The notes: generated by a model not told the origin, from the sequence alone. 42,327 nt of DNA from an uncultured Candidatus Bathyarchaeia archaeon (GCA_964628765.1 CAZVMT010000002.1:1-42327); one strand, 5' to 3'; positions 1 through 30,936 are shown, numbered from the stretch's first letter. Translations and numbers: made by a program.

Positions 1-1
1 T

Positions 2-199
2 TACCTCCAATGTTCTTCTCCAATCTGGCAAACGACACTCAATAGGTATATCAAAAGATTCGGGTATAATGGGATTATAAGTCCAATCTAAACCTAAAAT
101 ACATCCTAAACTGCCACCCATTAAGTCCATATAACAATAAGGACAACCATTACAACTTTTTATTCTCGTTCCATTTAAATTTTTTATTATCATTATCAT
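2..199 (-). CDS. hypothetical Cys-rich protein; 3' end runs off the left edge of the window
   Basis: My translation from ATG 199 (or 193): MIMIIKNLNGTRIKSCNGCPYCYMDLMGG... The frame stays open to position 2. AAAGGA lies upstream. Confidence 0.4.
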   Translation of the reverse strand, partial: MIMIIKNLNGTRIKSCNGCPYCYMDLMGGSLGCILGLDWTYNPIIPESFDIPIECRLPDWRRTLEV

Positions 200-240
200 T
201 ATTTCCTTTTAACTAAATAAAATATAAATTGATAATTGCG

Positions 241-262
241 GGGCAGGGATTTCAACCTGCCC
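241..262 (-). terminator. GC-rich hairpin downstream of 286..1491, possible terminator
   Basis: GGGCAGG-8 nt-CCTGCCC stem-loop in an AT-rich context, 24 nt after the stop codon. The downstream tail is T-rich but is not a clean T-run. Confidence 0.35.
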
Positions 263-285
263 GTTGGAGTGTAAAAATGAAAAAA

Positions 286-1491
286 TTAATTAGCCTTTGC
301 CTTGCCTCTGGGGATTGCGTTATTAATCGAGCCTCCAGGCTTGCCCTCTTCAACTATTTCCTCATCATCTAATAAGCCGGTACTACCTTCCTTTAGTTCT
401 AATTTGCCGCCGCCTGCTATGTGCCGCGCTATTGCTAAATTCTCGGCTCTGGTCGGTTCGGCTTTAGTGGCTTTGAGTTTTTCTTCCCTTCTCTTTCTCT
501 CGCCTAAAATTAACTTCTCCTTACTACCCATCCACCAATCCCAAATATCTATAGCCTGTGATTTGGTTAATTTGCCCGGGTCCATTGCAGGTGTCATTTT
601 GCCGGGTGCTTTGATATCTGCTTTGGTTAATAAATGGCTATGAAGGAATCCTAATGATATAACGTGCAATTTTTCATTTTTAATACTATTTTCACATTTA
701 GGACACTTAAAGCCATATACCCTAATACCACAATCTTCACAAACAACCTCGCCATAAATTTGTTTCATCTGTATTTCACTAGGACGGTTGTTAGTTTCTG
801 GTGATATTGCTTTTTCTGTTACTGTTACAACTTCCGCTTCCTGTCCATTGCCCCCATTGTCTTTGTTGTTATGAGTAGTGGTTTTTTCATTCACTAAATA
901 TTCTTCCGGTAAATCCTCAACGTCCTGGGTAAATAATTCTGACAAACTACCTACTAATAAAGCGGCGTCTACTTCTGATCTCTTTTTAGCCATTTTCAAT
1001 ATAGTGTTAGCAATAGAACATATATCTTCATTTTCAACTCTATATTGTTTATAATCGCCATATTTACCGCTTTTTACTCTATATACTAAATCCTCTTTCT
1101 TTATATTATTAGGTAATTTTTTTTCACTTACCCATCTATATCTATACTTATCCTCTTTGGAACTGCATAGACCTATACCTTGACATATTAGATTTTCACC
1201 TGCCCACAAATTCCACCTTAACTCAAACTGAAAAAACTCCTTTTCCCAATCTTTGGTCTCGTCTAAAATATCAAAGGTAGAACGTAACTTACCCAACATA
1301 AATATTTTTTCAGCTCCTGATTTATATAATGTTGGTTTAGATGTTCCAGGAATTATCCCGTAATCTTTACCTTCTTTTAAATTTTCTTGAACCAATTTTT
1401 GCCATTGAGTTATTTTTTGCATAGTTTCTTTAAAAGTAGTAATATCAGCTTGATCAATTATTGATAAACTATTAACTTCATTCATTATCAT
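286..1491 (-). CDS. putative recombination (ssDNA-annealing-type) protein with an internal zinc ribbon
   Basis: 401-aa ORF in the same co-directional gene run as the PD-(D/E)XK nuclease at 1923..2594, two small ORFs away. The N-terminal motif KPTLYKSGAEKI resembles motifs I recall from phage recombinases, but the family is not identified. Contains CEDCG...CPKCEN. Confidence 0.35.
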   Translation of the reverse strand: MIMNEVNSLSIIDQADITTFKETMQKITQWQKLVQENLKEGKDYGIIPGTSKPTLYKSGAEKIFMLGKLRSTFDILDETKDWEKEFFQFELRWNLWAGENLICQGIGLCSSKEDKYRYRWVSEKKLPNNIKKEDLVYRVKSGKYGDYKQYRVENEDICSIANTILKMAKKRSEVDAALLVGSLSELFTQDVEDLPEEYLVNEKTTTHNNKDNGGNGQEAEVVTVTEKAISPETNNRPSEIQMKQIYGEVVCEDCGIRVYGFKCPKCENSIKNEKLHVISLGFLHSHLLTKADIKAPGKMTPAMDPGKLTKSQAIDIWDWWMGSKEKLILGERKRREEKLKATKAEPTRAENLAIARHIAGGGKLELKEGSTGLLDDEEIVEEGKPGGSINNAIPRGKAKAN

Positions 1492-1712
1492 TTTCCCCCT
1501 TTCATTTTTTCTGATAAATTAATTGCTATATTTAAACAATTTCCACAAACACCACTACCTAACATTGGATCACCGCATATAACACATTCAGAAGAATCAT
1601 CGGGCAAATAACCACCAGCACAATTATATTCATTACAATGTTTATTATAAAAAACAAGCCAAGTCCGTTCACTTGGATTTAATCTGCCCCAACCTTCCTT
1701 TGTATATTTCAT
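1488..1712 (-). CDS. small Cys-rich hypothetical protein
   Basis: 74-aa ORF with an ATGA-type overlap with its neighbour and several CxxC pairs. Confidence 0.55.
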   Translation of the reverse strand: MKYTKEGWGRLNPSERTWLVFYNKHCNEYNCAGGYLPDDSSECVICGDPMLGSGVCGNCLNIAINLSEKMKGGK

Positions 1713-1918
1713 TAAATCTCTCCTCCTAACCTTCCATTATTTTTTTGATATTCATACTTCTCATAACTCATTACAGAATCCCGCTTAAAGGCATACAAAT
1801 ATCCGTCAATGCCAGGACGTGAGTTTATATCCCGTTGCCTTCGCTGTAATATGCTTTCCTCTTCTTCTACGGTGTGGCCGTTGCCTCGTGAAAGTAATCT
1901 GGCTGTTCGTGTTGGCAT
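1712..1918 (-). CDS. hypothetical protein
   Basis: 68-aa ORF packed in the operon. Confidence 0.45.
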   Translation of the reverse strand: MPTRTARLLSRGNGHTVEEEESILQRRQRDINSRPGIDGYLYAFKRDSVMSYEKYEYQKNNGRLGGEI

Positions 1919-1922
1919 AATC

Positions 1923-2594
1923 TTATTTCCCCCTATTTAACTTATTGATTTCTTTACTCAACTGATATATCTTCAGGCAACTTAAAAACACTTCAAACTG
2001 CTTACTTAAATTAGTCATAGTTTTTGTTTCAAAGCCTTCTTCCTCATTTCTTCCTAACCGGAGTATGATACATTGATCAACCTTATTCCCTTCTTCCTCT
2101 AATAGATTTTTATAAGCAGCCAATTGATAAAACTGCTCTGTATAAATAGCCTTCCCGGTCTTGTAGTCTATCAGTGTGGGAACTCCATCAAGTAAACAGT
2201 AATTATCCAAAGTACCGCCATACTGATATTTCTCTGAAACAGACTGCTTCTCTAAAAATATACTTTCTATTTTGTGTCTTTCGTGCCAATCAAGATATTT
2301 TAAGAAACAAGTTTCGGCTAAATCAATTTGAGCCTGTGTAAAATAATCAGTATCCGGCTTTTCGTCTTTCTCATAAGATAGTGCCATTAAATGTGTAAGA
2401 GTACCGATATCAGCCTTATCGTCCCGGAATGCTTTATAATCAATCCCTTGTGTACCTAAATTCCACGCCCAATGGATAAGTGCTGGTTTATTAAGGATAC
2501 CTAAAGCAGTAGTAACTCCGGGAACTCTTACCCCTTCTTGATTCTTATAGACTGTGTGAACTTTAACTTTTTTACCATTAGCTACAGTAACCAT
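1923..2594 (-). CDS. PD-(D/E)XK (RecB/Cas4-like) exonuclease
   Basis: GTLD...LIDYKTGK (D...D/E-x-K) followed by YQLAAY (QxxxY), which is typical of RecB-family and Cas4-like phage exonucleases. Confidence 0.75.
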   Translation of the reverse strand: MVTVANGKKVKVHTVYKNQEGVRVPGVTTALGILNKPALIHWAWNLGTQGIDYKAFRDDKADIGTLTHLMALSYEKDEKPDTDYFTQAQIDLAETCFLKYLDWHERHKIESIFLEKQSVSEKYQYGGTLDNYCLLDGVPTLIDYKTGKAIYTEQFYQLAAYKNLLEEEGNKVDQCIILRLGRNEEEGFETKTMTNLSKQFEVFLSCLKIYQLSKEINKLNRGK

Positions 2595-2908
2595 TAAATT
2601 TCCCCCTTTATTTTTAAATTTTCTGCAAAATCAATCAAACTTAATCCTTCCTCAAAACTAACAATTTCATGAGTTGTCATACATTGTATATAACCAAGGC
2701 AATGGTACAAACTGTGAACCTTACACATTTCTTTAAGTAATTCCTTATAATAATCTATGCTAAATTTGGTTACCATTTCTTGTTTAGTTTTGAGCAAAGT
2801 TTGAATATTCTCAATTTCATGTTGATACTTTTTTGGTGTATACACATTGGAATACTTGATTTGTTCTAAAAACTCAATTGCTTTTTCAGTATTCATCTTT
2901 TCACTCAT
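2594..2908 (-). CDS. hypothetical protein
   Basis: 104-aa ORF with overlapping start/stop and an SD-like GGGGGA upstream. Confidence 0.5.
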   Translation of the reverse strand: MSEKMNTEKAIEFLEQIKYSNVYTPKKYQHEIENIQTLLKTKQEMVTKFSIDYYKELLKEMCKVHSLYHCLGYIQCMTTHEIVSFEEGLSLIDFAENLKIKGEI

Positions 2909-3132
2909 TTTTCATTCCCCCCCTTAATCTCTTCAAAATTATCTTCAAAGTATTCTTTCCTTACATACCGTTGGTCTTTATGGTCTTTAGGATTACGTTC
3001 TATCATCCCTACATCATTTGCTAACTTGTCAATATTACTTACACTTATATGTGTTAAATCTTCCCCACGTATGTAAGGTCTCATTTCCGCAAAGCTTGTT
3101 CTTCTATACTTTTTCCAATTCTCCATTTTCAT
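2905..3132 (-). CDS. hypothetical protein
   Basis: 75-aa ORF with SD AAGGGGGA upstream. Confidence 0.5.
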   Translation of the reverse strand: MKMENWKKYRRTSFAEMRPYIRGEDLTHISVSNIDKLANDVGMIERNPKDHKDQRYVRKEYFEDNFEEIKGGNEK

Positions 3133-3177
3133 TTCCCCCTTAATTATTTTTTTTCTCTACCAGTAAAATCTACCGTT

Positions 3178-3333
3178 TTAGTGTTTTATAAGCACACCCC
3201 CTTTCTTTTGTATTCGTTTAATAAATCTATGTTCTTTTATCTTTTCCTTAATCTTTAGCCAGGCTATCCGGGCTATCATCACTAAGAACAGTGCGAAAAT
3301 TATACTTAGTGCTATCATCATTTCTTGTGGCAT
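3178..3333 (-). CDS. small membrane protein (51 aa), not in the ORF track
   Basis: My translation: MPQEMMIALSIIFALFLVMIARIAWLKIKEK... It has a TAATG overlap with the upstream stop and one clear TM helix. Confidence 0.45.
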   Translation of the reverse strand: MPQEMMIALSIIFALFLVMIARIAWLKIKEKIKEHRFIKRIQKKGGVLIKH

Positions 3334-3575
3334 TATCTTGCCCTCTCATCTTTATAAACTAATCCATTTACGTTTAGTGAATTTCCTTGATTGGTAACTG
3401 CTTCTATTACAGAAGAAAGAACATTTGTAGTTAGGTTAAACTTACACAATTCCTCTGCAATTATTTCAAGTGCCTTCATTTTGCGATATTCGATTTCATG
3501 TTCAAGGACATTTCTAACTACCTCATAATCAACATTCTCATCTTTTACCTTTTTTAAATACTCTAAATTCTTCAT
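3333..3575 (-). CDS. hypothetical protein (start moved to internal ATG)
   Basis: AAAGGAGGAAAGAAA precedes ATG at 3575 (MKNLEYLKK...). The longer 3677 start would overlap the upstream gene. Confidence 0.5.
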   Translation of the reverse strand: MKNLEYLKKVKDENVDYEVVRNVLEHEIEYRKMKALEIIAEELCKFNLTTNVLSSVIEAVTNQGNSLNVNGLVYKDERAR

Positions 3576-3588
3576 TTTCTTTCCTCCT

Positions 3589-3771
3589 TTAATTAACCTC
3601 TCTCTTAAACTCGTAACCATTAACCTTAATCGTTTCGCCGTTATGAAGTTTGTAGTTGATCCAGCGATGATTAACAATATTGTTATTGACTTCCTGTAAG
3701 CGCTTAATCAGCTCGCCGAACTTGACGACCTTTCTTGTGTGATCCGCCGTGTTAGTCATAATGATTTTCAT
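3589..3771 (-). CDS. hypothetical protein
   Basis: 60-aa ORF with SD AAAGGAGGCG 7 nt upstream of the ATG. Confidence 0.5.
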   Translation of the reverse strand: MKIIMTNTADHTRKVVKFGELIKRLQEVNNNIVNHRWINYKLHNGETIKVNGYEFKREVN

Positions 3772-3792
3772 AAGATACGCCTCCTTTTTTAC

Positions 3793-3974
3793 AAGCCTCC
3801 GTTTAGGTCCTTGAGTTAGGAAGCAAAGCCTAAATCCCTAACACAACCTTGCGGAGGCTTGATTTATATTTGCCTGCCCTGACAGGATTCCCCACCCTGT
3901 ACCTGTTTCGTTGTTCTACCCAGATTAGCCCCCCAGCCACAACCTTGACTATCTTTCAAGCCACAGGGCAGGCA
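3793..3974 (-). ncRNA. candidate structured RNA or cis-regulatory leader with two domains
   Basis: 11-bp stem TGCCTGCCCTG/CAGGGCAGGCA (3871-3881 with 3964-3974) enclosing three sub-hairpins. A second 9-bp stem AAGCCTCCG/CGGAGGCTT (3793-3801 with 3852-3860) encloses duplicated TTAGG/CCTAA pairs. The 234-nt gap is GC-enriched in a packed AT-rich genome. Confidence 0.45.
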
Positions 3975-4005
3975 TGATTACAAAATAAAAAAAGCCCGAA
4001 CACAT

Positions 4006-4512
4006 CTACCTTAAACATGGTAAACATTCGGACTTTAAAATTTTTGATCCTTTAGAATGATTTTCTTCAGGCGTAATCAATCGTAAATTCTCTAAACCCC
4101 AGCATTCCTGAAATTCATAATCAGTGGGTTCTGAATAATTAAAAACTGAAATAGGCATAATATGATCGAGTTCGAGTTTTCCCTCTAAATAATCATTCCA
4201 TATATAACCTTTTGGTAAAGTTTCCCTTAAATGTTTTTTTAAATCTATAAGCGTATATCCAACATAAGATTCCCATTGGTAACCATTCTTATCATTTAAA
4301 ATACAAAACCTTATAATCCGATACATTCTTTTGGTAAGATTAAATTTTTTCTCATTCCAATATTTTTTAAAATAATAACCGTTATAATATTCTTTATTTT
4401 GCTGATAATAAATCTTGTTTTGTCCATCTTTTTTTGATTTATTTTTTTTGTTATATTCCTTACGATATTTTCTTAAGTGTTCTTGATTATTTTTTATCCA
4501 ATCTTGTTGCAT
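4006..4512 (-). CDS. HNH homing-type endonuclease
   Basis: LELDHIMPISVFNY...ENLRLITPEENHSKGSK (H-N-H core). The N-terminus is Lys/Tyr-rich with Y..N.E repeats, as in phage HNH proteins. Confidence 0.8.
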   Translation of the reverse strand: MQQDWIKNNQEHLRKYRKEYNKKNKSKKDGQNKIYYQQNKEYYNGYYFKKYWNEKKFNLTKRMYRIIRFCILNDKNGYQWESYVGYTLIDLKKHLRETLPKGYIWNDYLEGKLELDHIMPISVFNYSEPTDYEFQECWGLENLRLITPEENHSKGSKILKSECLPCLR

Positions 4513-4530
4513 TTAACAACCTCCTAAAAT

Positions 4531-4568
4531 AAAAAAACCGAGCATCTTTTTAAAGACACTCGGTTTTT
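4531..4568 (-). terminator. rho-independent terminator, bidirectional in shape
   Basis: 9-bp stem CCGAGTGTC/GATGCTCGG (with G-U pairs) followed by T7 on the minus strand and T5 on the plus strand. It lies after the Cro-like gene. Confidence 0.65.
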
Positions 4569-4657
4569 AAAGTTATTCAAATGTTCCCTATCTGCTTACA
4601 TCTGATAACATTTGTTGAACATACGATATATTATAGGACTATAAAAACCGAATGTCT

Positions 4658-4840
4658 TTATTTATTATCTTCTAAAAACTTAACAATATTAGCGATACTT
4701 GCATGGTTTTTGGGGACTGTCTTACTTTTTTTCCATCTCATATATGTGGCATGGTGAACTTTAAGTATAGCAGCCATCATTGTATCAGAATAGTGCTTGT
4801 TTTTTTGAACTTCGATTAACATTCTTATTGCTTTTTTCAT
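4658..4840 (-). CDS. Cro/Xre-like helix-turn-helix regulator
   Basis: MKKAIRMLIEVQKNKHYSDTMMAAILKVHHATYMRWKK... is an HTH-like stretch. AGGAGG lies 7 nt before ATG 4840 and a consensus promoter lies upstream. Confidence 0.55.
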   Translation of the reverse strand: MKKAIRMLIEVQKNKHYSDTMMAAILKVHHATYMRWKKSKTVPKNHASIANIVKFLEDNK

Positions 4841-4862
4841 TTCTCTTTGCCTCCTAATTAAT

Positions 4863-4890
4863 AGTATAAACCTTTTTTTGCAGTTGTCAA
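4863..4890 (-). promoter_or_regulatory. sigma70-type promoter
   Basis: On the minus strand: TTGACA (4890-4885), 16 nt, TATACT (4868-4863), about 20 nt upstream of the SD of 4658..4840. Confidence 0.6.
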
Positions 4891-5078
4891 GCATTATTTT
4901 AAAAATAAATGAAAATAATTTAAAATATTTTTAGCAGGGCAAAACTACACGCTGTAACCCTTTAGAATTACCATTTCGTTATTTAATGGATCTACGGTGC
5001 TCGTGGTGGCGTTTCTTGCTTTAGACATTATATCATAAGCAGGATTTGCAATATTTACAGGTATTTAGGCAAATATAG

Positions 5079-5182
5079 GGTATAAAAACAGAAATGGCCG
5101 GTATAACGAAAGAAGCCCGGCTTTTACACCGAGCTTCAATCGAGGAGGAAAAAATGAAGCTGGACATTATCCGGTCTCCAGC
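5079..5182 (-). terminator. two tandem terminator-like hairpins after 5200..5388
   Basis: GCTGGA-12 nt-TCCAGC followed by TTCATTTTTT (5149-5182), then GCCGG-15 nt-CCGGC followed by CATTTCTGTTTTT (5079-5121), read on the minus strand. Confidence 0.45.
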
Positions 5183-5199
5183 CGCCGGCTTTGGGGGGA

Positions 5200-5388
5200 T
5201 CATCTGCTATCTACAAATCTTTTTATCTCCTCTATCATCTGATCTTCGATTTCTTTACTTTTTAATTTTTCCCGTTGGTACTTTTTATATTCCTCTATTT
5301 CATCTTCATAAACTACATCAAGTCCTCGCTTCTTAAATTCACTTTCCACTTTAGCCAGTATTCCTATTTTAGCCAACTCAATCGCCAA
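5200..5388 (-). CDS. hypothetical acidic coiled-coil protein (TTG start in the ORF track)
   Basis: 62-aa ORF with a weak SD. Its composition looks like a real protein. Confidence 0.4.
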   Translation of the reverse strand: MAIELAKIGILAKVESEFKKRGLDVVYEDEIEEYKKYQREKLKSKEIEDQMIEEIKRFVDSR

Positions 5389-5432
5389 CCAAACAAAAGC
5401 ACTTACCTTGTCTTTTTTGGTCAGCTCTTTGG

Positions 5433-5606
5433 TTAGTTTTTTGGCTGAAATTCTTTTACCGAATCAATGACCATTTTAAATAGTTCATTGTCTATTGCAT
5501 TAGGGCTATTCGCTACGACATCTTCCAACTTACCTAATAGCTGAATAATGTAACCCTTGCCGCTACCGGCCAATGCTCTGATTACTAACAGGATTAAATC
5601 CTCCAT
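5433..5606 (-). CDS. hypothetical protein
   Basis: GAGGTG lies 6 nt before ATG 5606 (MEDLILLVIRALAG...). Confidence 0.45.
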   Translation of the reverse strand: MEDLILLVIRALAGSGKGYIIQLLGKLEDVVANSPNAIDNELFKMVIDSVKEFQPKN

Positions 5607-5637
5607 TATTATCACCTCACTTTCATTTTTTATTTTA

Positions 5638-5973
5638 TTACTTTACCTCAATTTCCTTAACGAAACTGGTCGGGCAATCTCCGTAAACTTTAATTATGTT
5701 ATCAAGGGTATGCCCGTCTGGATCAAACTCCACAACATCGCCAAGTAAGAACATTCGCCCGTCTGCATTCTTCCAGTAAACCCCTTCTACCTGCTCATCA
5801 CCTTCACAACCTGTCATACTCCATTCGTCCCAGTAAACATGATATTGTCCGCCTTCACAAACAATCGGAGTCTCTATTGGGGTAATAGGTTCTTCTGGGA
5901 CTTCAGGAACCAAAAGACAACCGGATAAAGCAAGCGCCATAATCACCGCTAATAGTATTATTAATTTCTTCAA
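5638..5973 (-). CDS. phage lipoprotein
   Basis: Signal peptide with lipobox: LKKLIILLAVIMALALSGC. AGGAGG lies 8 nt before TTG 5973; the track start at GTG 5982 abuts the SD. Confidence 0.6.
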   Translation of the reverse strand: MKKLIILLAVIMALALSGCLLVPEVPEEPITPIETPIVCEGGQYHVYWDEWSMTGCEGDEQVEGVYWKNADGRMFLLGDVVEFDPDGHTLDNIIKVYGDCPTSFVKEIEVK

Positions 5974-6349
5974 GTTAATCACCTCCTTTCCTATTTTTAT
6001 ATATAAACCTGCTTAATCGTGTCCTTAATCGTGCTTCTAATTATGAACTATCCGGTAATTCCGGATAACTTAAAATAGTCTCGACCATTATCGACTGTAG
6101 TCGAAATCTACCACGGTTGTAGTTAATATGGGTTGCCACCCCATAATCGATCATAAAGCGTCGACTACCCCACAATCTTAATATTGATAGTTAAATATGC
6201 AGGGTTACTGTAACGAAATAGTGTCGCTATTTGGTATAAACGTGTCCAGTTTCGTTACTGTATCATTACTCTATAAATGATTATTTAAACTATTTGCTGG
6301 TAGTGATAATAAGTAATTTCGTTATTATCATCTTGTGCAAATAATGCAC

Positions 6350-6589
6350 TTAATCAAAATATGCTAAAAACTTCTCTTCAAATTCTCTCCCTTTCTCGGT
6401 AAAATTATGATCCATCTGAAAGTCCTCAAAAATATCTAAAACAGAAAACTTAAAATCTTCTATAGCCTCTGCTTTTGTTTTCCCCGAACCGTATAAATTG
6501 AGGTCGGTACATTCAACAGTATAAAGTTTCGTGACGGTTACCTCGATAGACTTGTTTAATTGCAGCCCTTTAATTTTATTTATTAGCAT
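6350..6589 (-). CDS. hypothetical protein with HicB/UPF0150-like features
   Basis: LYGSGKTKAEAIEDFKFSVLDIFE resembles the G-x-T-x-EEA motif of HicB-fold proteins. Weak call. Confidence 0.4.
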   Translation of the reverse strand: MLINKIKGLQLNKSIEVTVTKLYTVECTDLNLYGSGKTKAEAIEDFKFSVLDIFEDFQMDHNFTEKGREFEEKFLAYFD

Positions 6590-6607
6590 ATTAAATCCCC
6601 TTCTTTA

Positions 6608-6760
6608 TCAATTAAACCAATTTTTCATCTCATAATATAGTTTAATCCCTCTGTATATATCGTATAAATAATAAAATGCTTTCATGAATATTACCCCAAC
6701 TATAAAGCCTCTCCAAAATAAAGGAATAGTTTTTATTGTTTCGGTTAAAAATTCAAACAT
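6608..6760 (-). CDS. small membrane protein (50 aa), not in the ORF track
   Basis: My translation: MFEFLTETIKTIPLFWRGFIVGVIFMKAFYYLYDIY... AAGGAG lies 7 nt upstream. Confidence 0.5.
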   Translation of the reverse strand: MFEFLTETIKTIPLFWRGFIVGVIFMKAFYYLYDIYRGIKLYYEMKNWFN

Positions 6761-6762
6761 AA

Positions 6763-6936
6763 TTAATCTCCTTTAAAATAAAGAATCTTTCCCAGCAAGT
6801 CTTGTTCCGTTTCAATGTTTTTAAAATATTCTTCCCGAAGCTTTTCCCAATAATCTTTCACTTCTTGCACCGTTTGCGGGTTGCTCGTGTTTAGCCACAA
6901 ATGAAATTTAGTAATTGTTCTTGTTAAAATATCCAT
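6763..6936 (-). CDS. hypothetical protein (57 aa), not in the ORF track
   Basis: My translation: MDILTRTITKFHLWLNTSNPQTVQEVKDYWEKLREEYF... AGGAG lies 8 nt upstream. Confidence 0.5.
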   Translation of the reverse strand: MDILTRTITKFHLWLNTSNPQTVQEVKDYWEKLREEYFKNIETEQDLLGKILYFKGD

Positions 6937-6966
6937 TTAATATACTCCTGATTATTATACTTACGT

Positions 6967-7149
6967 TTATATTAGAATTTTATTGTTGCGTATTTCTTCA
7001 GTTTTTAAACATAATTCAAGAAAAAACATTCTAAGCTCATTATCTATTCCTTCTATTTCTGCTAAAGAATATTGAATTGCTTTTAATTCCGATAAATTTA
7101 GACTTATATTAACTTCCATTACATCTGGTTTTATATATTGTAATTCCAT
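6967..7149 (-). CDS. hypothetical protein
   Basis: 60-aa ORF with AAAGGAGG 5 nt upstream. Confidence 0.5.
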   Translation of the reverse strand: MELQYIKPDVMEVNISLNLSELKAIQYSLAEIEGIDNELRMFFLELCLKTEEIRNNKILI

Positions 7150-7372
7150 AATAACCTCCTTTGTTTATCTTATTTACTGTGACAAGTCAGCCAAACCTTT
7201 CTTACCTGACAAACCCCGTTTTAAGTCAAATTGGGTGGTATTTCAAATATATGACAAAAGTGTCATCAACTGGTAAGAATATGTTACAAGTTGGACACAC
7301 TCCATCTTATGTATTATTTTGTCTATTATGATACGCAAACTATTTTGTATATATTCTATGGCACGCAAATGC

Positions 7373-7810
7373 TTATTTCTCATATATGGCTTTTTCTACT
7401 TTTCCTTCTATTGCTTTACCCCAAACACATAATGTTTTTCTTTCCGCTCTTAGATTTTTAAGAAATTTCTCTAAAGCACCTTCAAACGTTTTACCATAAG
7501 CGGCAAGCGATAAAATGACATTTTCGGTAAAAAATTGCTTACAAGTCGCACAATAATAGCCATCTTCTTTTTTAACAGTAATTTCAAAATTATCCAATTC
7601 GTCGATCTTCCATCCATCTTCATAATCAGTAACTTCCCAACCGAAGTAAATTGCATAACCAGGGTATTTGTTTATTTTAAATTCCTTTGATGATTCTTCT
7701 ATAGTATAAGAACCTTTTATTTTACCCTTTATACACAAGTCTACAATTTTCTTACATCGATAATCCGTAAGTTTTCTTAATCTATCATCTTTTATAAATA
7801 TTTTTTTCAT
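7373..7810 (-). CDS. hypothetical protein
   Basis: 145-aa ORF. No family recognised. Confidence 0.55.
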   Translation of the reverse strand: MKKIFIKDDRLRKLTDYRCKKIVDLCIKGKIKGSYTIEESSKEFKINKYPGYAIYFGWEVTDYEDGWKIDELDNFEITVKKEDGYYCATCKQFFTENVILSLAAYGKTFEGALEKFLKNLRAERKTLCVWGKAIEGKVEKAIYEK

Positions 7811-7911
7811 ATAATTTTCCTCACTTCCTCTCTTATCGCTTCAGGCACATCATCGATAGACCAGCCATAATTTAACTTTGAGAGCCAGATATCGATAATA
7901 TATATTTCCAT
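7807..7911 (-). CDS. possible 34-aa leader ORF coupled to 7373..7810
   Basis: MEIYIIDIWLSKLNYGWSIDDVPEAIREEVRKII. It has an ATGA overlap with the next start and only a weak AAGGA SD. Confidence 0.3.
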   Translation of the reverse strand: MEIYIIDIWLSKLNYGWSIDDVPEAIREEVRKII

Positions 7912-7969
7912 TAACTTACCGTCCTTAGGTGCTTACACATCTTTTCAACTGTATACATTTACGCCCACG

Positions 7970-8055
7970 TCTTTGTAAACTCCTCCGCTGTTCTTTGTAA
8001 ACGCAGAGGTTATTTACAAACGTCTTTGTAAATCTATATACGTTTCTTTGTAAAC
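7970..8055. repeat. iteron array, 4 direct copies of TCTTTGTAAA(C/T) plus one inverted copy
   Basis: Copies at 7970, 7992, 8023 and 8045 (spacing 22/31/22 bp). Inverted TTTACAAA at 8013-8020. Most copies are preceded by ACG. An AT-rich stretch follows. Confidence 0.8.
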
Positions 8056-8059
8056 CAAC

Positions 8060-8191
8060 CTATTTTTTCCAAAATTCTATTGTTAATCCAAACAAAACAA
8101 AATTTAAGGCAAATATTTTAAAATACAATCCTTTGAGATATACAAAGGCAAACTTCTTTACCCACGATTTATGTATTTTTACATTTATCAT
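8060..8191 (-). CDS. possible 43-aa small membrane protein
   Basis: MINVKIHKSWVKKFAFVYLKGLYFKIFALNFVLFGLTIEFWKK. GGGGAA lies 5 nt upstream. It sits in an otherwise noncoding AT-rich stretch. Confidence 0.3.
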   Translation of the reverse strand: MINVKIHKSWVKKFAFVYLKGLYFKIFALNFVLFGLTIEFWKK

Positions 8192-8346
8192 AATTTTCCC
8201 CTGTTATTATGTTCAGCAATTCTCTTTGAAACGGAATTAGTGAACATTGCCGTAGGTTTGTTATACTCCGATTGCATTATGTGTCCTCGTGGGGACACTC
8301 TTTATATTACAACTGTAATTTTCTCCATTACATTTACATTACTACG

Positions 8347-8376
8347 GCCAGAGTACAGCCAGAGTAACGGCCAGAG
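8347..8376. repeat. triple GCCAGAG direct repeat
   Basis: GCCAGAG at 8347, 8358 and 8370 (11- and 12-bp phasing), immediately after the stop of 8378..8578. Confidence 0.7.
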
Positions 8377-8377
8377 C

Positions 8378-8578
8378 TTATTCCACTTTCGCCAACTTTA
8401 TGCCACTTATGGCATTAGTAGATTCCTCTATATCCTTCTCCAATATCCGCTTTAGCCGTTTTCTTCTTAACCGCCTATAACATCGTTTTATTCCAGGGCT
8501 ATATTGCCAAGGGGTATCTTTCCACTCCCATACTTCAACTATATTTTTTTCTTCACGGTTAGGGTTGGTTTGTGTCAT
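8378..8578 (-). CDS. hypothetical basic protein
   Basis: 66-aa ORF with an ATGA overlap with the upstream gene and the Arg-rich stretch RCYRRLRRKRLKR. Confidence 0.5.
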   Translation of the reverse strand: MTQTNPNREEKNIVEVWEWKDTPWQYSPGIKRCYRRLRRKRLKRILEKDIEESTNAISGIKLAKVE

Positions 8579-9063
8579 TTTGCTATATAAACGCTGTAAC
8601 CTGCTTTTATTTTGTTTAATCTTTTTATAATATCTTCTAATTTTTCACCGAAATATATCATAATTGAACTATTGTTTTCGGGATTAATTACAGTAAAAGC
8701 GTATATTTTACCCTTTATAAAATCTTCTCTTCGCCAATCAGAATTAGTATTTTCAAAAACAGAATCACTTTTAGTAAAATTAGCAGGTTCTCTTACTTCA
8801 AAATTAAAATTTGTTGATATATCAGCAATTTTTTCTACATATTCATCATAGACCCGTCCAGCATTATGTTCATAAGGTTTATCGTTCCAATCATCTCCCC
8901 ATTGTTCCCCATTCTTGCCAAGATACAACCTAACCATATTACCCTTAATTTCACAATCAATTAATTCCTGATTTATGTTTGTCATCTCTTTATATTCCTC
9001 CTCAAACTTTTCTTTAAATTCTTTATTCTCCATTAGCTTATCGAGATACGTTTTCTGTTTCAT
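8575..9063 (-). CDS. hypothetical protein
   Basis: 162-aa ORF containing WGDDWNDKPYEHNAG. Family not recognised. Confidence 0.55.
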   Translation of the reverse strand: MKQKTYLDKLMENKEFKEKFEEEYKEMTNINQELIDCEIKGNMVRLYLGKNGEQWGDDWNDKPYEHNAGRVYDEYVEKIADISTNFNFEVREPANFTKSDSVFENTNSDWRREDFIKGKIYAFTVINPENNSSIMIYFGEKLEDIIKRLNKIKAGYSVYIAK

Positions 9064-9305
9064 CTTAGCAATGCTATAAATCTTTCAGCTTCATTTCTAT
9101 CGCTGTTTTTTTCTTCTTCTGGTAATTTGGAATATGGGGTTTTCATTTGACGTTTCCATCTTTCTACTGCCCAAGACGGAATAACCATATTCTCCGTTTC
9201 TTTATCAAATTGCCCTCTTTCGTGATAACATTTTGAAAATAAATACTCCATCCATCCAGACCATTGTTTATGACATAACTCTGCAATTTTTTCTTTCTCT
9301 TTCAT
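9060..9305 (-). CDS. RyR-domain-like small protein
   Basis: HKQWSGWMEYL...PYSKLPEEEKNSDRNEAERFIALL resembles the phage/bacterial RyR (PF02026-type) pattern W...PY.ELPE.EK..DR. Confidence 0.4.
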   Translation of the reverse strand: MKEKEKIAELCHKQWSGWMEYLFSKCYHERGQFDKETENMVIPSWAVERWKRQMKTPYSKLPEEEKNSDRNEAERFIALLR

Positions 9306-9307
9306 AA

Positions 9308-9502
9308 TTAACCTCCCTTATTTTCATAATCAATCTCCCACCACAACACATTACATAGCGGTACATACCATTCATTATCAATTCCCTTACACCTAACAAA
9401 TAACATAGGTATACCATTTTTCTTAACAATTTCAGGTTCATCTATTACGCTACAAAATTCCTCTGGTTCATCTACATCACGATAACTTATTTTTATATTC
9501 AT
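9308..9502 (-). CDS. hypothetical protein
   Basis: 64-aa ORF with AAAGGAGG upstream. Confidence 0.5.
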   Translation of the reverse strand: MNIKISYRDVDEPEEFCSVIDEPEIVKKNGIPMLFVRCKGIDNEWYVPLCNVLWWEIDYENKGG

Positions 9503-9523
9503 AATTAACCTCCTTTATTTTGA

Positions 9524-9756
9524 CCACTCCACCTATCTTGGTTGTTTCCCTTCACCAAAGTTCCAGTAACAACTAACATGTATCTTCAAGAAGAGCCCAG
9601 GGGCTCTTATCAGCAGAGTGGAACGTTTAAGAACTAATTGCCTGTTTTCCCACCCTCACAGGCTCGTCTGCTATAGTCAGACACCCTACCACATCTAATA
9701 AATACAAGCACAGGCTCATACTCTTGTGTGGTATTACTTATACCAATTACTATAGA
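9524..9756 (-). ncRNA. structured noncoding segment between the tRNA-Thr and the next gene
   Basis: On the minus strand: GGTAT/ATACC, GTCTG/CAGAC, GCCTGT/ACAGGC (loop GAGGGTGGGAAA), AAGAGCC/GGCTCTT and GTTGTT/AACAAC hairpins. CCACTC/GAGTGG (9616-9621 with 9524-9529) closes a 3-way junction. Confidence 0.4.
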
Positions 9757-9830
9757 TGGAGCTGACAGTTTGAATTGAACAAACATCTACTGTTTACAAG
9801 ACAGCAGCTCTGCCGTTGAGCTATGCCAGC
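9757..9830 (-). tRNA. tRNA-Thr (anticodon UGU) with encoded CCA
   Basis: Folded by hand. Acceptor GCTGGCA/TGTCAGC, D arm GCTC-AACGGCA-GAGC, anticodon arm GCTGT-CTTGTAA-ACAGT, T arm GTTTG-TTCAATT-CAAAC. U8, A14, GG, U33 and TTCAA are present, with discriminator T then CCA. Confidence 0.9.
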
Positions 9831-9834
9831 AATA

Positions 9835-9916
9835 TGGTGGAGGTGGTGACTTTCGCCACGTTTCCGAGAATAGGGTAGCAACGTAGTTGTGCCTACTTCG
9901 GTCGATTTACACCCCC
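9835..9916 (-). ncRNA. tRNA-like element (7-bp acceptor-type stem ending ACCA) lacking canonical D/T arms
   Basis: GGGGGTG...CACCTCC-ACCA closing stem. Inside are a long irregular hairpin and a GTGGC-GAAA-GTCAC (GNRA) hairpin. It lies 4 nt upstream of the tRNA-Thr 5' end. Confidence 0.35.
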
Positions 9917-9920
9917 ATAT

Positions 9921-10745
9921 CTAAACGCTTGCGTGTATATCTTTGCCCTTCTCTGGTTCACCATTTAATCTGACCCTTGTAGATCCCGTTGCTGGTTTTA
10001 TATACATTCCTTTTAAACTATAACTTGCATATCCCATGTAACTACCTGTTGCTACAAAACATTCCTGTTGTTCTATTAATTTTTTATTGTGCATATCGGG
10101 ATATATATACTTTTCTTTTAATGCTATTTTGCTATGAACATGAGCGCCAAAATATATATCAGCTAAGGCCATACTCTTCAATGACATAATCCGATTTACT
10201 TTTCCACCCTGTGTCCTGCCTCCGCCTATCACATGATGAAGAAAAGCAGAATAACAAATGGGTCGTCTCTTATCCATTCTCTTATTCCCCCGGCTTTCAC
10301 CTACATTTAAAAATAAATAAGCGCACCAATTAGGGAAATATTCTATATCTAAAAACTTTGATAAATCCTGTATAGGACTATCACCAACTGCTTTTAGTAT
10401 GCGTTCTTCGTGGTTACCCTCAAAGCAACCTAATATCTTATCTTTTATCGGTCTTAATTCTTCAGTAATAAAGTCTTTTGCTTTTGCTAAATTAAATTGG
10501 TTATCGTGTACATTGCCTATTGATGTTTTTATGGTAGCGTCAAAAACATCTCCCATTAAAAATGTGTACGCTTCAGGTGTGTCTTTTATCCACTTAACCA
10601 TATCTCTAAATTTTTTAGTTGCATATACTCCTTCGGGTAATTCTCCTCCTAAACCTGATTTATCCCCACAATGAAAATCACCAATGGGTATAAAATAGAT
10701 GTGGTCAAATTCTTGTGGGAATACAATACTTTTAGTCTTTATCAA
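9921..10745 (-). CDS. calcineurin-like metallophosphoesterase
   Basis: IGDFHCG (GDxH), MGDVFDA (GDxxD), EGNHEE (GNHE) and GAHVH motifs, in order. Confidence 0.8.
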   Translation of the reverse strand: MIKTKSIVFPQEFDHIYFIPIGDFHCGDKSGLGGELPEGVYATKKFRDMVKWIKDTPEAYTFLMGDVFDATIKTSIGNVHDNQFNLAKAKDFITEELRPIKDKILGCFEGNHEERILKAVGDSPIQDLSKFLDIEYFPNWCAYLFLNVGESRGNKRMDKRRPICYSAFLHHVIGGGRTQGGKVNRIMSLKSMALADIYFGAHVHSKIALKEKYIYPDMHNKKLIEQQECFVATGSYMGYASYSLKGMYIKPATGSTRVRLNGEPEKGKDIHASV

Positions 10746-10761
10746 ATATTTCCTCCTTTAC

Positions 10762-10944
10762 TTACTCAAACTCGAAGTATCTTTCTAACTTATCATTACT
10801 TTCGTCCTCGTATTCTTCCTTACTTATCTCAAGTCTGTCCCCGCAAAAAGGGCAATAACTGACATATTTGTCCCCCTTTAAAGTAAACGATATAACGAAC
10901 CCGCACTTCGGGCATTCCCAATATTGCTCATTGGTCGCTTCCAT
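10762..10944 (-). CDS. zinc-ribbon protein
   Basis: CPKCGF...CPFCGD in a 60-aa ORF. Confidence 0.55.
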   Translation of the reverse strand: MEATNEQYWECPKCGFVISFTLKGDKYVSYCPFCGDRLEISKEEYEDESNDKLERYFEFE

Positions 10945-11473
10945 TTTTCTCCTTTGGAATTAACTTGCACTGTTCCGCTATTTGAATAACTTTATCCGGA
11001 TAAAATTTATCGGTTGCATATCCGGCTACCCAGATTTCTTTAATAAATATTCTCATATCTTTTAAGGCTTTATCAGTAAGAGCCATTCTATATCTTTGGA
11101 CTTTTTTCCCATCTATATCTATCATTGAATTTTTTATTACATTGACATAATCAAACATACATTCTTGATAATTGTAGTATGCCCTGAAGGTTGCTTTTGG
11201 TATAAAAATATACTTATTTAAAACTTTATCCCATTCGTGAGTACCACAAGTTACATAGCCATTCGTGCCATGATATATTCCCGGTTTAGCTTTTATACCT
11301 AGAATATTGTTCGATTTCTTTCCTGTAATCGTGTCGAAAGGCATAGACCTCAACCAACCTGTTTCCCATATCGCCTGCGCAATGATAGCGGAAGCAGGAA
11401 AGCCAGAAACTTTCTTGACCTCATAGGCTATATCTTTTAATTGCTTTACTACCCACCATTGGCGTATGTTCAT
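10928..11473 (-). CDS. endolysin, GH73 N-acetylglucosaminidase (FlgJ/mannosyl-glycoprotein endo-beta-N-acetylglucosaminidase type)
   Basis: AQAIWETGW...SNNILGIKA...FRAY..Y matches the glucosaminidase family signature. It sits after the tail fibre and a membrane protein. Confidence 0.75.
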   Translation of the reverse strand: MNIRQWWVVKQLKDIAYEVKKVSGFPASAIIAQAIWETGWLRSMPFDTITGKKSNNILGIKAKPGIYHGTNGYVTCGTHEWDKVLNKYIFIPKATFRAYYNYQECMFDYVNVIKNSMIDIDGKKVQRYRMALTDKALKDMRIFIKEIWVAGYATDKFYPDKVIQIAEQCKLIPKEKNGSDQ

Positions 11474-11829
11474 TTAATCTTCTCCCTCAACTCTTTCATC
11501 TCTGCTTGTATTTTAGCTATTGCAGGGTTATTACCATTCATGAAGTCTAATATCCTGTCAAAGCAAGTCAACATTTTACTCCATGCGTCAACATTATCTT
11601 TGTCGTGCTTATCTAACTTATTTAATGTCTGTACCTGTATAACACTTCCATCTTTAAGGTTTTTGGTAATCTCCAAATTAATCCGCTTATTTTCAGTTAC
11701 GTTGTTATCTATATTAGTTATTTTCCCTTCCAATAGACTCCACATCTTACGAACTAAAAATGTTGCAACGTAGAAGATGAAAATGTACGAACCATATTTA
11801 TAAATATTTTCTGGGGTCAATCCTAACAT
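11470..11829 (-). CDS. holin-like lysis membrane protein
   Basis: Single N-terminal TM (YGSYIFIFYVATFLV) followed by a charged coiled coil. It lies immediately upstream of the endolysin and overlaps it. Confidence 0.4.
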   Translation of the reverse strand: MLGLTPENIYKYGSYIFIFYVATFLVRKMWSLLEGKITNIDNNVTENKRINLEITKNLKDGSVIQVQTLNKLDKHDKDNVDAWSKMLTCFDRILDFMNGNNPAIAKIQAEMKELREKIK

Positions 11830-11845
11830 CTAATCACCTATCCTT

Positions 11846-12103
11846 TTACTTCACTACTTCTTTAACTACTACCTCTATCGGCTCTACCTTTTTCGTTATA
11901 CCCAGCTTGATACACTCGGCTATAAGTGCGTTCACTTCTGCAAGCTCTAAATCTCTTTGTGCCATCTCCCTCGCCTTCTGTGCTTCAATAGTTGCTTTCT
12001 GCTTTAGTAGAAAATCATAATTATAGGTATGCTCTACTTCTTTTGTTTCAGTCTTGACTACCTTAATTTCTGTATCGCTTATTTTACTAAATACATCTGT
12101 CAT
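11846..12103 (-). CDS. small coiled-coil protein downstream of the tail fibre
   Basis: 85-aa ORF with SD GGAAGGTG. Confidence 0.5.
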   Translation of the reverse strand: MTDVFSKISDTEIKVVKTETKEVEHTYNYDFLLKQKATIEAQKAREMAQRDLELAEVNALIAECIKLGITKKVEPIEVVVKEVVK

Positions 12104-12125
12104 ATTTATTCACCTTCCTTTTATT

Positions 12126-13646: not shown

Positions 13647-13753
13647 TATATAACCATCTCCTTTAATAACTTATTACATTTTTTTGAGTTACAACTTCTA
13701 CAAGCAGGCACAATATTTTCTTTAACATTATTACCACCCTTCGAAATTGGCAT
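13646..13753 (-). CDS. 35-aa ORF resembling only the C-terminal half of an HNH endonuclease
   Basis: MPISKGGNNVKENIVPACRSCNSKKCNKLL... carries the GG...N....C..CN..K tail of HNH nucleases. It has TAATG overlaps at both ends. Confidence 0.4.
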   Translation of the reverse strand: MPISKGGNNVKENIVPACRSCNSKKCNKLLKEMVI

Positions 13754-13983
13754 TATTTTTCCTCCTCCGTCCAATCAGTAGTGTTCTTACTACCATATTT
13801 ATTTTCTATATCTACCCTTCGGACATCTGCCGAAGGATCATCAAATATATATTTGGCAATAGCTCCGCGGGAGGTATCGCTTTTATCTTCCATATTGCCC
13901 CTTGTAACTGTGCGGTTGGTAATATCCTCACTCTTCCAGTGGGGAGATTGTACTTTTTTTTCTTCTGTCCAATTAGTGGTCAT
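13753..13983 (-). CDS. hypothetical protein
   Basis: 76-aa ORF that begins TTNWTEEKK and ends TTDWTEEEK. Confidence 0.5.
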   Translation of the reverse strand: MTTNWTEEKKVQSPHWKSEDITNRTVTRGNMEDKSDTSRGAIAKYIFDDPSADVRRVDIENKYGSKNTTDWTEEEK

Positions 13984-13997
13984 TTCGTCACCTCAAT

Positions 13998-14026
13998 TTG
14001 ACATTTATTAAAAATAAGAGTATAAG
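13998..14026 (+). promoter_or_regulatory. plus-strand sigma70-type promoter
   Basis: TTGACA (13998-14003), 17 nt, TATAAG (14021-14026), followed by a G6 SD and ATG 14049. Confidence 0.55.
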
Positions 14027-29051: not shown

Positions 29052-29126
29052 ATATAATTCACGTCCTTTTTATTAATATTTTTGTTTTCCCCCGTGAATT
29101 ACAGACTATTTAGTTATTAGTTTATG

Positions 29127-30044: not shown

Positions 30045-30065
30045 GATTTAAAATACTCCTTTCGT

Positions 30066-30257
30066 TTAATTGGTTTCTTTTATTTCTTCTACGGTTTCTT
30101 TAGATAATCTTAAATTAAACTCTACTTTCTTTGGGAGACTATTAAAACCGTAATTTAAAAATAATCTCTCTCCACTACAATGTTGTAATATCAAATCACC
30201 ATCGTCACAAGTTATAATTTTTTCACAATTAATATCTCTAATTGTAAATGGCTTCAT
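30066..30257 (-). CDS. hypothetical protein
   Basis: 63-aa ORF. Confidence 0.45.
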   Translation of the reverse strand: MKPFTIRDINCEKIITCDDGDLILQHCSGERLFLNYGFNSLPKKVEFNLRLSKETVEEIKETN

Positions 30258-30268
30258 AATTCCCCCTC

Positions 30269-30520
30269 TTATTTTTTCTTCATCTTCCCTGCCTCATCAC
30301 CTACATTAAGCAACGCATTAATCTCTAATATGAAATCATCTATCGCTTGAACATAGGCTTGAGCATAATATATCTTGCTTATTTCCTTCTCGGTAAGTGC
30401 CTTATCGGTATAATAGGCCTTCTTTATATTAACTATTCTCATTATGTCCTGCCAGCCAGCCGTGTTAAGAGTGGCTCGCAAGCGGTCAGCTTGCTCAATA
30501 GCGGAGTCATAGTTGGTCAT
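30269..30520 (-). CDS. hypothetical protein (start moved to internal ATG)
   Basis: AAGGAAG precedes ATG 30520 (MTNYDSAIEQ...). The longer 30577 start overlaps the upstream gene. Confidence 0.45.
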   Translation of the reverse strand: MTNYDSAIEQADRLRATLNTAGWQDIMRIVNIKKAYYTDKALTEKEISKIYYAQAYVQAIDDFILEINALLNVGDEAGKMKKK

Positions 30521-30533
30521 GGTAAAATCTTCC

Positions 30534-30752: not shown

Positions 30753-30774
30753 TTCTATTTTCCCTCCTTTATTT

Positions 30775-30909: not shown

Positions 30910-30936
30910 TTTAAATCCCCCCTTTTAATTTTTTAT

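Follow-up and report, generated by a model that had tools for sequence, protein, structure and literature searches.

The 234-nt gap at positions 3772-4005 of a 42,327-nt contig (GCA_964628765.1 CAZVMT010000002.1:1-42327, deposited as an uncultured Candidatus Bathyarchaeia archaeon; the whole stretch is called the window below, and positions are counted from its first letter) very probably holds two independent, conserved, cis-encoded RNA modules, D1 and D2, which form part of the early-operon transcript of an uncultivated tailed phage and occupy a recurring slot. D1 and D2 are a real pair of phage RNA families, apparently uncatalogued. A first-pass annotation, made from the sequence alone, had described the gap as one two-domain structured RNA next to an HNH endonuclease gene, with the layout of a translational switch. 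Its structural reading turned out to be largely right and its functional reading largely unsupported. The two domains do not form a single RNA: D1 is found without D2 in about 33 loci, and D2, which stands behind D1 in the window and in the related loci L004 and L086, occurs without D1, alone after a terminator, in L059, L074, L087, L088 and L089.

The gap is bounded by two open reading frames (ORFs) on the minus strand, that of the HNH endonuclease (4006-4512) and that of a 60-aa protein (3589-3771). The GC content is 0.46-0.53 inside the gap and 0.2-0.35 in the flanking DNA; this profile and the ORF calls confirm the GC-enriched non-coding region that had first drawn attention. Folded as minus-strand RNA, the gap reaches -83.1 kcal/mol (z -4.1). 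In the comparison with shuffled sequences suggested by the first-pass annotation, none of 200 shuffles folded as well, and the plus strand (z -5.7) likewise beats all 200. Taken separately, D1 has a minimum free energy (MFE) of -43.8 kcal/mol (z -3.6) and D2 one of -31 kcal/mol (z -4.8). Small ORFs within the gap (36, 31 and 42 aa) were dismissed as genes because the centre is freely variable in length and sequence. The parts of D1 are as follows.

3871-3974, minus strand: D1, a four-way-junction RNA, defined by covariance model, covariation and MFE.
3964-3974 with 3871-3881, minus strand: P1 of D1, the 11-bp GC-rich closing stem TGCCTGCCCTG/CAGGGCAGGCA, supported by covariation.
3959-3963 with 3946-3950, minus strand: P2 of D1, a sequence-conserved hairpin, UGGCU/AGUCA, in the register of the family.
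3901-3945, minus strand: the variable centre of D1, 35-180 nt long across the family.
3896-3900 with 3882-3886, minus strand: P4 of D1, which encloses a 9-nt T-loop-like loop, GUGGGGAAU, at 3887-3895.

Relatives of D1 were retrieved from IMG/VR and from metagenome contigs by exact-pattern scans, with the 3' motif and then with the 5' motif; the contig names we take to indicate sediment, groundwater, soil and saline-lake samples. A covariance model was built on 18 members, and the search with it, counting copies at E<1e-3 as family, gives at least 38 non-identical copies on contigs of uncultivated phages. That of the window (3871-3973) reaches 74.3 bits (E ~2e-17), and the window contains no second one. 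Common to all copies are a 5' module, UGCCUGCCCUG-UGGCG-UUCUGG-CGUCA-GG, and a 3' module, GG(G)U-ACAGG-GUGGGGAAU-CCUGU-CAGGGCAGGCA, while the centres fall into several sequence classes unrelated to each other. The purine-rich junctions and the loops are conserved and the peripheral helices variable.

Compensatory changes, whose absence from related phages had been named in advance as grounds for doubting the proposed stems, were found in both the D1 and the D2 families. In the alignment of 38 D1 members, 98.7% of the cells are paired, and 17 of the 20 modelled pairs show a compensatory change, as against 2-5 when the partners are slid by 1-3 columns. The observed pairing values were matched by none of 500 shuffles; the alignment was fitted to its model, but fully compensated helices are nevertheless visible by eye. 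Examples are three helices in the second D1 copy of L003 (ACCUAUCCUG/CAGGAUAGGU, UAACA/UGUUA and GUGGAG/CUUCAC), and single helices of L040 (UGCCACCUG/CAGGUGGCA), L041 (AGGCUCG.CUG/CAG.CGAGCCU) and L001 (GUGAG/CUCAC). The G.U pair of P2 is kept in 33 of the 38 members, and the alignment holds 67 G.U cells overall. Since this pair is conserved and D2 has an invariant U.G pair of its own, the strand that folds is the gene strand.

The hairpins drawn inside the 11-bp stem by the first-pass annotation fared unequally. The stem itself and the ACAGG/CCTGT hairpin are present and backed by covariation. CTTGA/TCAAG is possible as an alternative register, but the family uses UGGCU/AGUCA; GTTGT/ACAAC does exist as a stem in the window, but lies in the hypervariable centre and finds no comparative support.

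The arms of D1 are almost identical between phages whose neighbouring proteins share just 27-44% identity, and their primary sequence is therefore likely to be recognised by something conserved. Divergent second copies of D1 occur in neighbouring intergenic gaps of L003, L020, L038 and L084, and L011 has a pair of adjacent copies in which the second scores E 0.012. The same P1 arms (GCCUGCC.../...GGCAGGC) also surround different interiors, at L020 5928-6081(-), which is without P2 or T-loop, at L011 4198-4305(-), which is tRNA-like, and at L086 ~13,020-13,105(+), which is reduced. This points to P1 and its flanks as a slot into which different RNA cargos can be placed. Another conserved stretch, UUCCUUAGGGAA(A/G)U(A/G)GUGAAAUGCCGUAAUGCCCG, lies ~10-60 nt after D1 in L018 and after the second D1 copy in L084, in loci that are otherwise different; it is perhaps a mini-ORF (AUG CCG UAA), perhaps one more small module.

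To judge from complementarity, the loop of P2 probably contacts the variable centre. In 10 members the centre contains CCAGAA, which over all 6 nt is Watson-Crick complementary to the loop sequence UUCUGG; several more carry CCAGA, and L018 has a compensatory variant in which the loop UUAUAG faces CUAUAA in the centre. The complementarity reaches p<=0.022 in each of 11 of 32 members, where ~0.7 would be expected, and the CCAGAA-type motif usually falls in a loop of the MFE folds. It is significant with Watson-Crick pairing only; with G.U pairs allowed, the contact is indistinguishable from shuffles and the comparison has no power. Nor is the contact universal, the match in the window copy being just AGAU/AUCU (4 nt, p 0.19).

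D2 is a different kind of structure.

3792-3861, minus strand: D2, a long nested hairpin with an irregular helix of ~23 bp (10 + 5 + 8 bp), defined by a nine-member family.
3852-3861 with 3792-3801, minus strand: basal stem of D2, 10 bp, CAAGCCUCCG/CGGAGGCUUG.
3779-3784, minus strand: GGAGGC, the Shine-Dalgarno (SD) sequence of the 60-aa gene, read from the sequence and predicted to be mostly unpaired.

The nine members are those of the window, L004, L043, L059, L074 and L086-L089. A scan with the 17-mer AAGCCTCCGCAAGGTTG hit 42 loci, 4 of which hold true D2 copies; most of the others represent an unrelated high-GC coding gene. From the base upward D2 consists of the basal stem, an internal loop (CA/AAA), an invariant AGGUU/GACCU helix, a second internal loop and an 8-bp upper stem, and its apex carries a conserved GACUUUG motif. 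All 23 consensus pairs are kept across the family. Compensatory change affects 8 of them, namely all 8 pairs of the upper stem, and the sequence of the basal stem is conserved, the exception being a single U-A to C-G double change in L089. The closing stem of the first-pass annotation is thus real, with 10 bp in place of the 9 claimed. The two TTAGG and two CCTAA blocks from which either a nested hairpin or an H-type pseudoknot had been derived also exist. The nested hairpin is supported and the pseudoknot is not, because the second CCTAA sits in GACCUAAA, an invariant segment paired with AGGUU, and the second TTAGG (UUAGG in the RNA) has no counterpart in the 8 members other than the window copy. 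The decamer CAAGGTTGTG, reported once in each domain, lies precisely where stated, at 3842-3851 and at 3938-3947, and chance would yield ~0.03 occurrences; it reflects a motif common to the two families, which reads (C)AGGUUG behind P2 of D1 and CAAGGUUG within D2.

Both modules belong to a recurring arrangement: an early promoter with a putative operator, a short leader, a strong intrinsic terminator, the slot, an A-rich linker, an SD and a small early gene. The slot is occupied by D1 alone, by D2 alone, by D1 and D2, or by the other interiors between P1 arms (L020, L011, L086). Many relatives show TATAAT and GGTAACC-type repeats, a short leader, a terminator and ATTTT(G)(T)AATCAT, followed by D1 or D2. 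D1 comes after a T-run terminator in 14 of the 38 copies, and in 29 of the 38 an SD and start codon follow P1 within at most 16 nt (mostly 3-9 nt); the small genes downstream are diverse. An SD lies 5-9 nt downstream of eight of the nine D2 copies. In L011, D1 directly precedes a homologue of the window's 60-aa gene without D2, and in L019 it stands ahead of a gene that in L004 comes after D1 and D2. The corresponding features of the window are listed here.

4658-4840, minus strand: a small helix-turn-helix (HTH) regulator gene, an ORF with weak HTH matches and a likely start MKKAIRML... after the SD AAGGAGG.
4630-4658, minus strand: a sigma-70-like early promoter, AAGACA-17-TATAAT, recognised from its sequence and followed by ATGTT-type repeats.
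4533-4568, minus strand: the leader intrinsic terminator, with a 16-bp stem and a T-run, from the terminator scan.
4006-4512, minus strand: the HNH endonuclease gene, 168 aa (phrog_1035, E 1e-5).
3984-4036, minus strand: a terminator hairpin across the HNH stop codon, with its U-run (-20.6 kcal/mol, z -6.3).
3589-3771, minus strand: the first early gene after the slot, an ORF of 60 aa with homologues in L001/L002 (44% identity).

Along the minus strand of the window the order is a terminator (5137-5112), promoters, the HTH gene, the promoter 4658-4630, the leader terminator 4568-4533, the HNH gene, D1 and D2, and after these small early genes and an exonuclease. In the transcription map of the window D1 and D2 stand at the start of a transcription unit. 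The leader terminator has by far the longest stem among the terminator-like sites of the minus strand (positions 1-14000 and 28000-42327 were scanned), and in relatives without the HNH gene a homologous terminator lies directly ahead of D1 or D2. All gene-like large ORFs (at least 80 aa) are on the minus strand, the head and packaging genes lying upstream. Cultured phages are only distantly related to this one: the best full-length matches among them share at most 27% identity with its large terminase. The HTH protein is the one most often shared: 13 loci encode a homologue of it at 500-1500 nt upstream of their D1 or D2. Extension of the locus set through this protein added one new locus. No RNA-binding or RNA-processing phage protein co-occurs with D1; the proteins shared between loci are the HTH protein, the exonuclease, an ATPase, HNH proteins and small unknown proteins.

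The ATGTT-type repeats (4575-4625) behind the promoter may be its operator. Their counterparts in L004, L005, L022, L023, L029, L036 and L037, ~60-110 nt upstream of D1, are GGTAACC/GGTTACC repeats placed just after TATAAT with a spacing of ~11 nt, some of them palindromic. Repeats, short leader and strong terminator(s) together resemble a regulated early promoter with read-through control, of the kind of lambda PR'-qut-tR'. A second GC-rich non-coding patch lies upstream of the HTH gene at 4895-5210 (minus strand, GC up to 0.53). It holds the intrinsic terminator 5137-5112 and, near 5040, an extended -10 promoter-like sequence, TGATATAAT, and is overlapped by an 80-aa ORF on the plus strand (5094-5336); it may be a late/early transcription boundary or another RNA.

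The HNH gene appears to be a mobile, homing-type cassette inserted between the leader terminator and D1, beside very conserved sequence. The 12-nt junction TTTTTTTATTTT stands at both edges of a 544-nt cassette (4526-4537 and 3982-3993) and is single in L005 and L029, which lack the gene. The T-run hairpin that the first-pass annotation had placed at the end of the HNH gene is real (3993-4036, with the energy and z listed above), and the 3' half and U-run of the terminator 3984-4036 correspond in alignment to the 3' half of the ancestral leader terminator. The suggested link between the HNH gene and the RNA did not hold, an HNH gene being adjacent in 3 of ~36 distinct D1 loci (window, L001, L092) and in one of nine D2 loci (L089). 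Homologues occupy the same position before D1 in L092 and before D2 in L089 (38% identity to the window protein), and L001 has a different HNH gene located after D1. We rejected a HEARO/omega RNA of IscB and an HNH group I intron as candidates: the HNH association is not obligate, the proteins of 139-168 aa are not IscB, the flanks are separate complete genes, and Rfam gave no intron or HEARO match. Another HNH gene of the window, at 37951-38514 (minus strand, 187 aa), is of a different family and clusters with HNH ORFs of L001/L006, L003, L017 and L074.

Searches against known families agree with the statement in the first-pass annotation that no RNA family could be assigned, for which an Rfam search had been proposed as a check. 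Rfam 15 was searched with the window and 25 related loci at gathering thresholds, and with 3700-4100 and the D1 and D2 of L004 at E<=10. D1 and D2 match no family; at gathering thresholds the window gives only a tRNA-Thr (9760-9830), and the hits at E<=10 are noise. Known ribozymes (hammerhead, twister, twister-sister, pistol, hatchet, HDV-like) gave no match at E<=10 and were set aside, as were the known riboswitch classes (no Rfam match, the SD outside P1, and D2 able to intervene between D1 and the SD) and the C4/P4 CI antisense RNA (RF01695, no Rfam match). Duplex energies between the D1 centre and its own leader, ribosome-binding site (RBS) or flanks are no better than those of shuffles in most of 13 loci, which gives no support to an antisense role of the centre against its own leader. 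BLASTN, likewise proposed in the first-pass annotation, was run with 3700-4100 and found no match among 50,697 GenBank phage records. A scan of a genome collection with the D1 3' motif found no match; with the 5' motif it found one real contig, an Omnitrophota-binned metagenome-assembled genome with two copies, and one chance match in Alcanivorax. Exact-sequence look-ups of the window proteins matched no record, and a literature search limited to bioRxiv found no preprint relevant to D1 or D2.

D1 shares with tRNA and with tRNA-like RNAs (the tRNA-like domain of tmRNA, bacterial YrlA/Y RNAs, mascRNA) four helices meeting in one junction. P4, with 5 bp and its T-loop-like loop, abuts the 3' strand of P1 as the T arm abuts the acceptor stem in tRNA, and the second helix takes the place of the D arm. 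Rare paralogues carry a canonical GGUUCGAUUCC T arm as tRNA does: UUAGG-UUCGAUU-CCUAA nested inside the same P1 at L011 4198-4305, and GCAGG-UUCGAAU-CCUGU, then CAGGGG, directly ahead of D2 in L043. Unlike tRNA, D1 has a closing stem of 11 bp, not 7, a loop of 9 nt (GUGGGGAAU), not UUCRANN, and a centre of 35-180 nt, and its P2 loop is complementary to this centre instead of touching the T-loop. It is also without an anticodon arm, a CCA end and G3.U70, P1 reading GCCUGCC.../...GGCAGGC-A-AAU with neither G.U at position 3 nor CCA. ARAGORN finds only the tRNA-Thr (9757-9830) in the window and nothing at the D1 copies of 33 loci. A tRNA (RF00005) was rejected, since 3700-4100 and the L004 D1 gave no Rfam tRNA match at E<=10; a tmRNA (RF00023) or its tRNA-like domain was rejected as well, D1 having no tmRNA match and lacking the defining features, and the Rfam YrlA model does not match D1.

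Other tRNA-like RNAs were noticed in these phages. Directly 5' of the tRNA-Thr(UGU) gene of the window (9757-9830) lies an 82-nt tRNA/tmRNA-like RNA (9835-9916, minus strand) with an acceptor GGGGGUG/CACCUCC that contains G3.U70 and an ACCA end. It folds as a stem enclosing two hairpins (-28.3 kcal/mol, z -2.6) and is not reported by Rfam. The corresponding 106-nt RNAs of L001 (545-650) and L017 (1283-1388) score 52 bits, against an Rfam tmRNA gathering score of 47, and are without the entire mRNA-like and pseudoknot part; they are phage 'mini-tmRNA' genes and lie elsewhere than D1. In L039, a tRNA-like element of ~137 nt (650-790, minus strand) stands 35 nt upstream of the D1 copy, with a long insert besides its acceptor GGAGAGG/CCUCUCC, its D arm and a T arm of canonical type (GAGGGUUCGAAUCCCUC); it escapes ARAGORN, and its match to the tmRNA model is weak and partial (E 0.006).

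RNA elements read by conserved machinery of the host fit these observations best, because the folds are strand-specific and conserved, the position before the RBS at the head of the early operon is fixed, the modules are interchangeable and the arms outlast the neighbouring proteins in conservation. The function that we find most plausible, though short of probable, is that D1 and D2 punctuate the polycistronic early mRNA, as sites of processing or as stabilisers. Conserved host machinery of the RNase III type would recognise D2 and the stalk P1, and D1 would be a tRNA-like processing or protective module, read by an enzyme of the tRNA-processing type with P1 as its stalk; alternatively, D1 and D2 might merely block 5'-3' and 3'-5' decay. 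In both cases a very stable structure would head or cap the downstream mRNA just a few nucleotides ahead of the RBS, and this mRNA would be insulated from the upstream terminator. The canonical T arms of the paralogues, the position at the start of the transcription unit and the geometry of D2 (a helix of some two turns, made irregular by two internal loops and placed 5-9 nt ahead of an SD, as at RNase III sites) speak for such punctuation. Several features weigh against it. The T-loop, the conserved P2 and the loop-loop contact would be superfluous in a plain stabiliser; P1 and P4 stack to 16-17 bp, where RNase P measures 12 bp; D1 has no 3' CCA and tRNA models do not score on it; and no RBS is close by in 9 of the 38 D1 copies. 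The extreme conservation of primary sequence could also reflect a trans-acting function, or recombination and homing.

The main rival, unlikely in our estimate, makes D1 a stable trans-acting tRNA mimic that is excised from the leader with P1 as its processing stalk and serves as sponge or decoy either for a defence system directed against tRNA or for a conserved factor of the host, the centre reflecting an arms race or being dispensable. The T-arm-like P4 and the canonical T-loops of the paralogues, the compact fold, the complementarity of P2 loop and centre including the compensatory case of L018, and the near-invariance of the arms amid highly diverged neighbour genes would all suit a mimic. 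So would its location, early and close to the promoter with small accessory genes and HNH insertions around it, and the mini-tmRNA-like RNAs and tRNA-Thr of the same phages. A mimic without anticodon arm or CCA end, on which tRNA and tmRNA models do not score, is less convincing; a trans-acting RNA has no need of the tight recurring spacing to an SD, and it has no known partner. With comparable reserve, D1 may be seen as the founder of a new class of tRNA-derived phage RNA, released early and engaging a universally conserved host machine, or as a new ribozyme itself. Small ribozymes are common in phage intergenic regions, which favours a new self-cleaving ribozyme, and the sharing of P1 arms by different interiors, with HNH cassettes inserting beside them, would suit a purely DNA-level inverted-repeat site for recombination or homing, targeted by the HNH enzymes. 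Both are nevertheless improbable enough to be put at the bottom of the list, since no ribozyme family matches at E<=10 and no conserved unpaired catalytic core is obvious, and since a role in DNA alone leaves unexplained the compensatory changes in P1, P2 and P4, the strand-specific G.U cells and the constant orientation to the genes.

The remaining alternatives place regulation in cis. The translational switch of the first-pass annotation supposes that the 5' strand GCCUCC of D2 has two partners to choose from: paired with its own GGAGGC it would leave the SD accessible, and paired with the real SD it would shut translation off. Such a switch is decidedly unlikely. The SD GGAGGC is where it had been placed (3779-3784, with the ATG at 3769-3771), GCCUCC is complementary to it, the basal stem of D2 is conserved in sequence without covarying freely and holds a perfect SD-like GGAGG, and a purine-rich SD follows at the short distance given above. 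The complementarity is generic, however, for CCUCC pairs with any SD; covariation with the SD is inseparable from the generic SD sequence, and nothing else supports the switch. For D2 with SD and ORF start, the hairpin fold has -35.7 kcal/mol, as against -28.7 kcal/mol when GCCUCC is forced onto the SD, a gap of 7 kcal/mol; the SD bases are 0.7-0.9 unpaired in the predicted ensemble of the D1-D2-SD transcript; no trigger is apparent; and L043 has D2 with no SD nearby. In L089 both sides of the stem changed together, to CCCCCG/CGGGGG, and therefore the intramolecular stem is what is maintained. If D1 controlled the downstream gene as a riboswitch-like sensor, whether of an ion, a protein or a small molecule, this would account for its position in the 5' untranslated region directly ahead of the RBS and for its conserved purine-rich junctions and loops with variable peripheral helices. 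We consider such a sensor very unlikely, given that an expression platform is missing (P1 ends 3-9 nt before the SD, and no conserved anti-SD or terminator follows D1), that D2 may sit between D1 and the SD (window, L004, L086), that the downstream genes are diverse and that no Rfam riboswitch matches. Processive antitermination by D1 and/or D2, like that of HK022 put or EAR, would serve a long genome read from one strand and suits a promoter-proximal structured RNA of conserved primary sequence at the head of a long co-directional gene array. It is a shade less likely again: the modules lie downstream, not upstream, of the strong leader terminator, few terminator-like sites lie beyond them in the scanned parts of the window, and many copies stand between ordinary genes, up to two per locus, with no EAR match in Rfam.

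These results add two well-supported structured-RNA families from uncultivated phages to those of Rfam 15, in an unusual organisation: a fixed slot heading an early operon, whose contents (different folded RNA modules, and homing HNH genes) are exchanged. D1 is compact (~100 nt) and pairs tRNA-like hallmarks with a hypervariable insert, and the conservation of its arms points to an interaction with conserved host machinery. Should it found a new class, the target might for example be the ribosome, an enzyme that processes or modifies tRNA, or a defence nuclease directed against tRNA, with D1 as decoy or inhibitor, and the interiors swapped between identical P1 arms would make up an RNA 'cassette slot' analogous to the anti-defence islands of proteins. 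Mimicry, if that is its role, would make D1 an RNA factor of host takeover or anti-defence.

Among known systems, the P1/P7 c4 and P4 CI RNAs (the C4 family of Rfam) are, like D1 and D2, structured RNAs that lie behind a regulated promoter, within the leader of an operon with early or immunity functions. The c4 and CI RNAs are matured by RNase P. D1 differs from them in architecture and in having no consistent complementarity between centre and flanks. HK022 put and the Bacillus EAR are also cis-acting structured RNAs near the start of a long operon; unlike these, D1 and D2 come after the leader terminator, between ordinary genes and in multiple copies, and Rfam gives no EAR match. RNase III processes the early mRNAs of T7 and SP82 at intergenic hairpins (R0.3-R1.3 in T7). 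D2 has no sequence similarity to these sites and carries the conserved apical GACUUUG, and it resembles them as an intergenic irregular helix with internal loops, located shortly before an RBS within a polycistronic early transcript, conserved in its lower stem and loops and variable in its upper stem. If the interaction of D1 with host machinery is one of processing, it would represent a bacterial-virus counterpart of tRNA punctuation.

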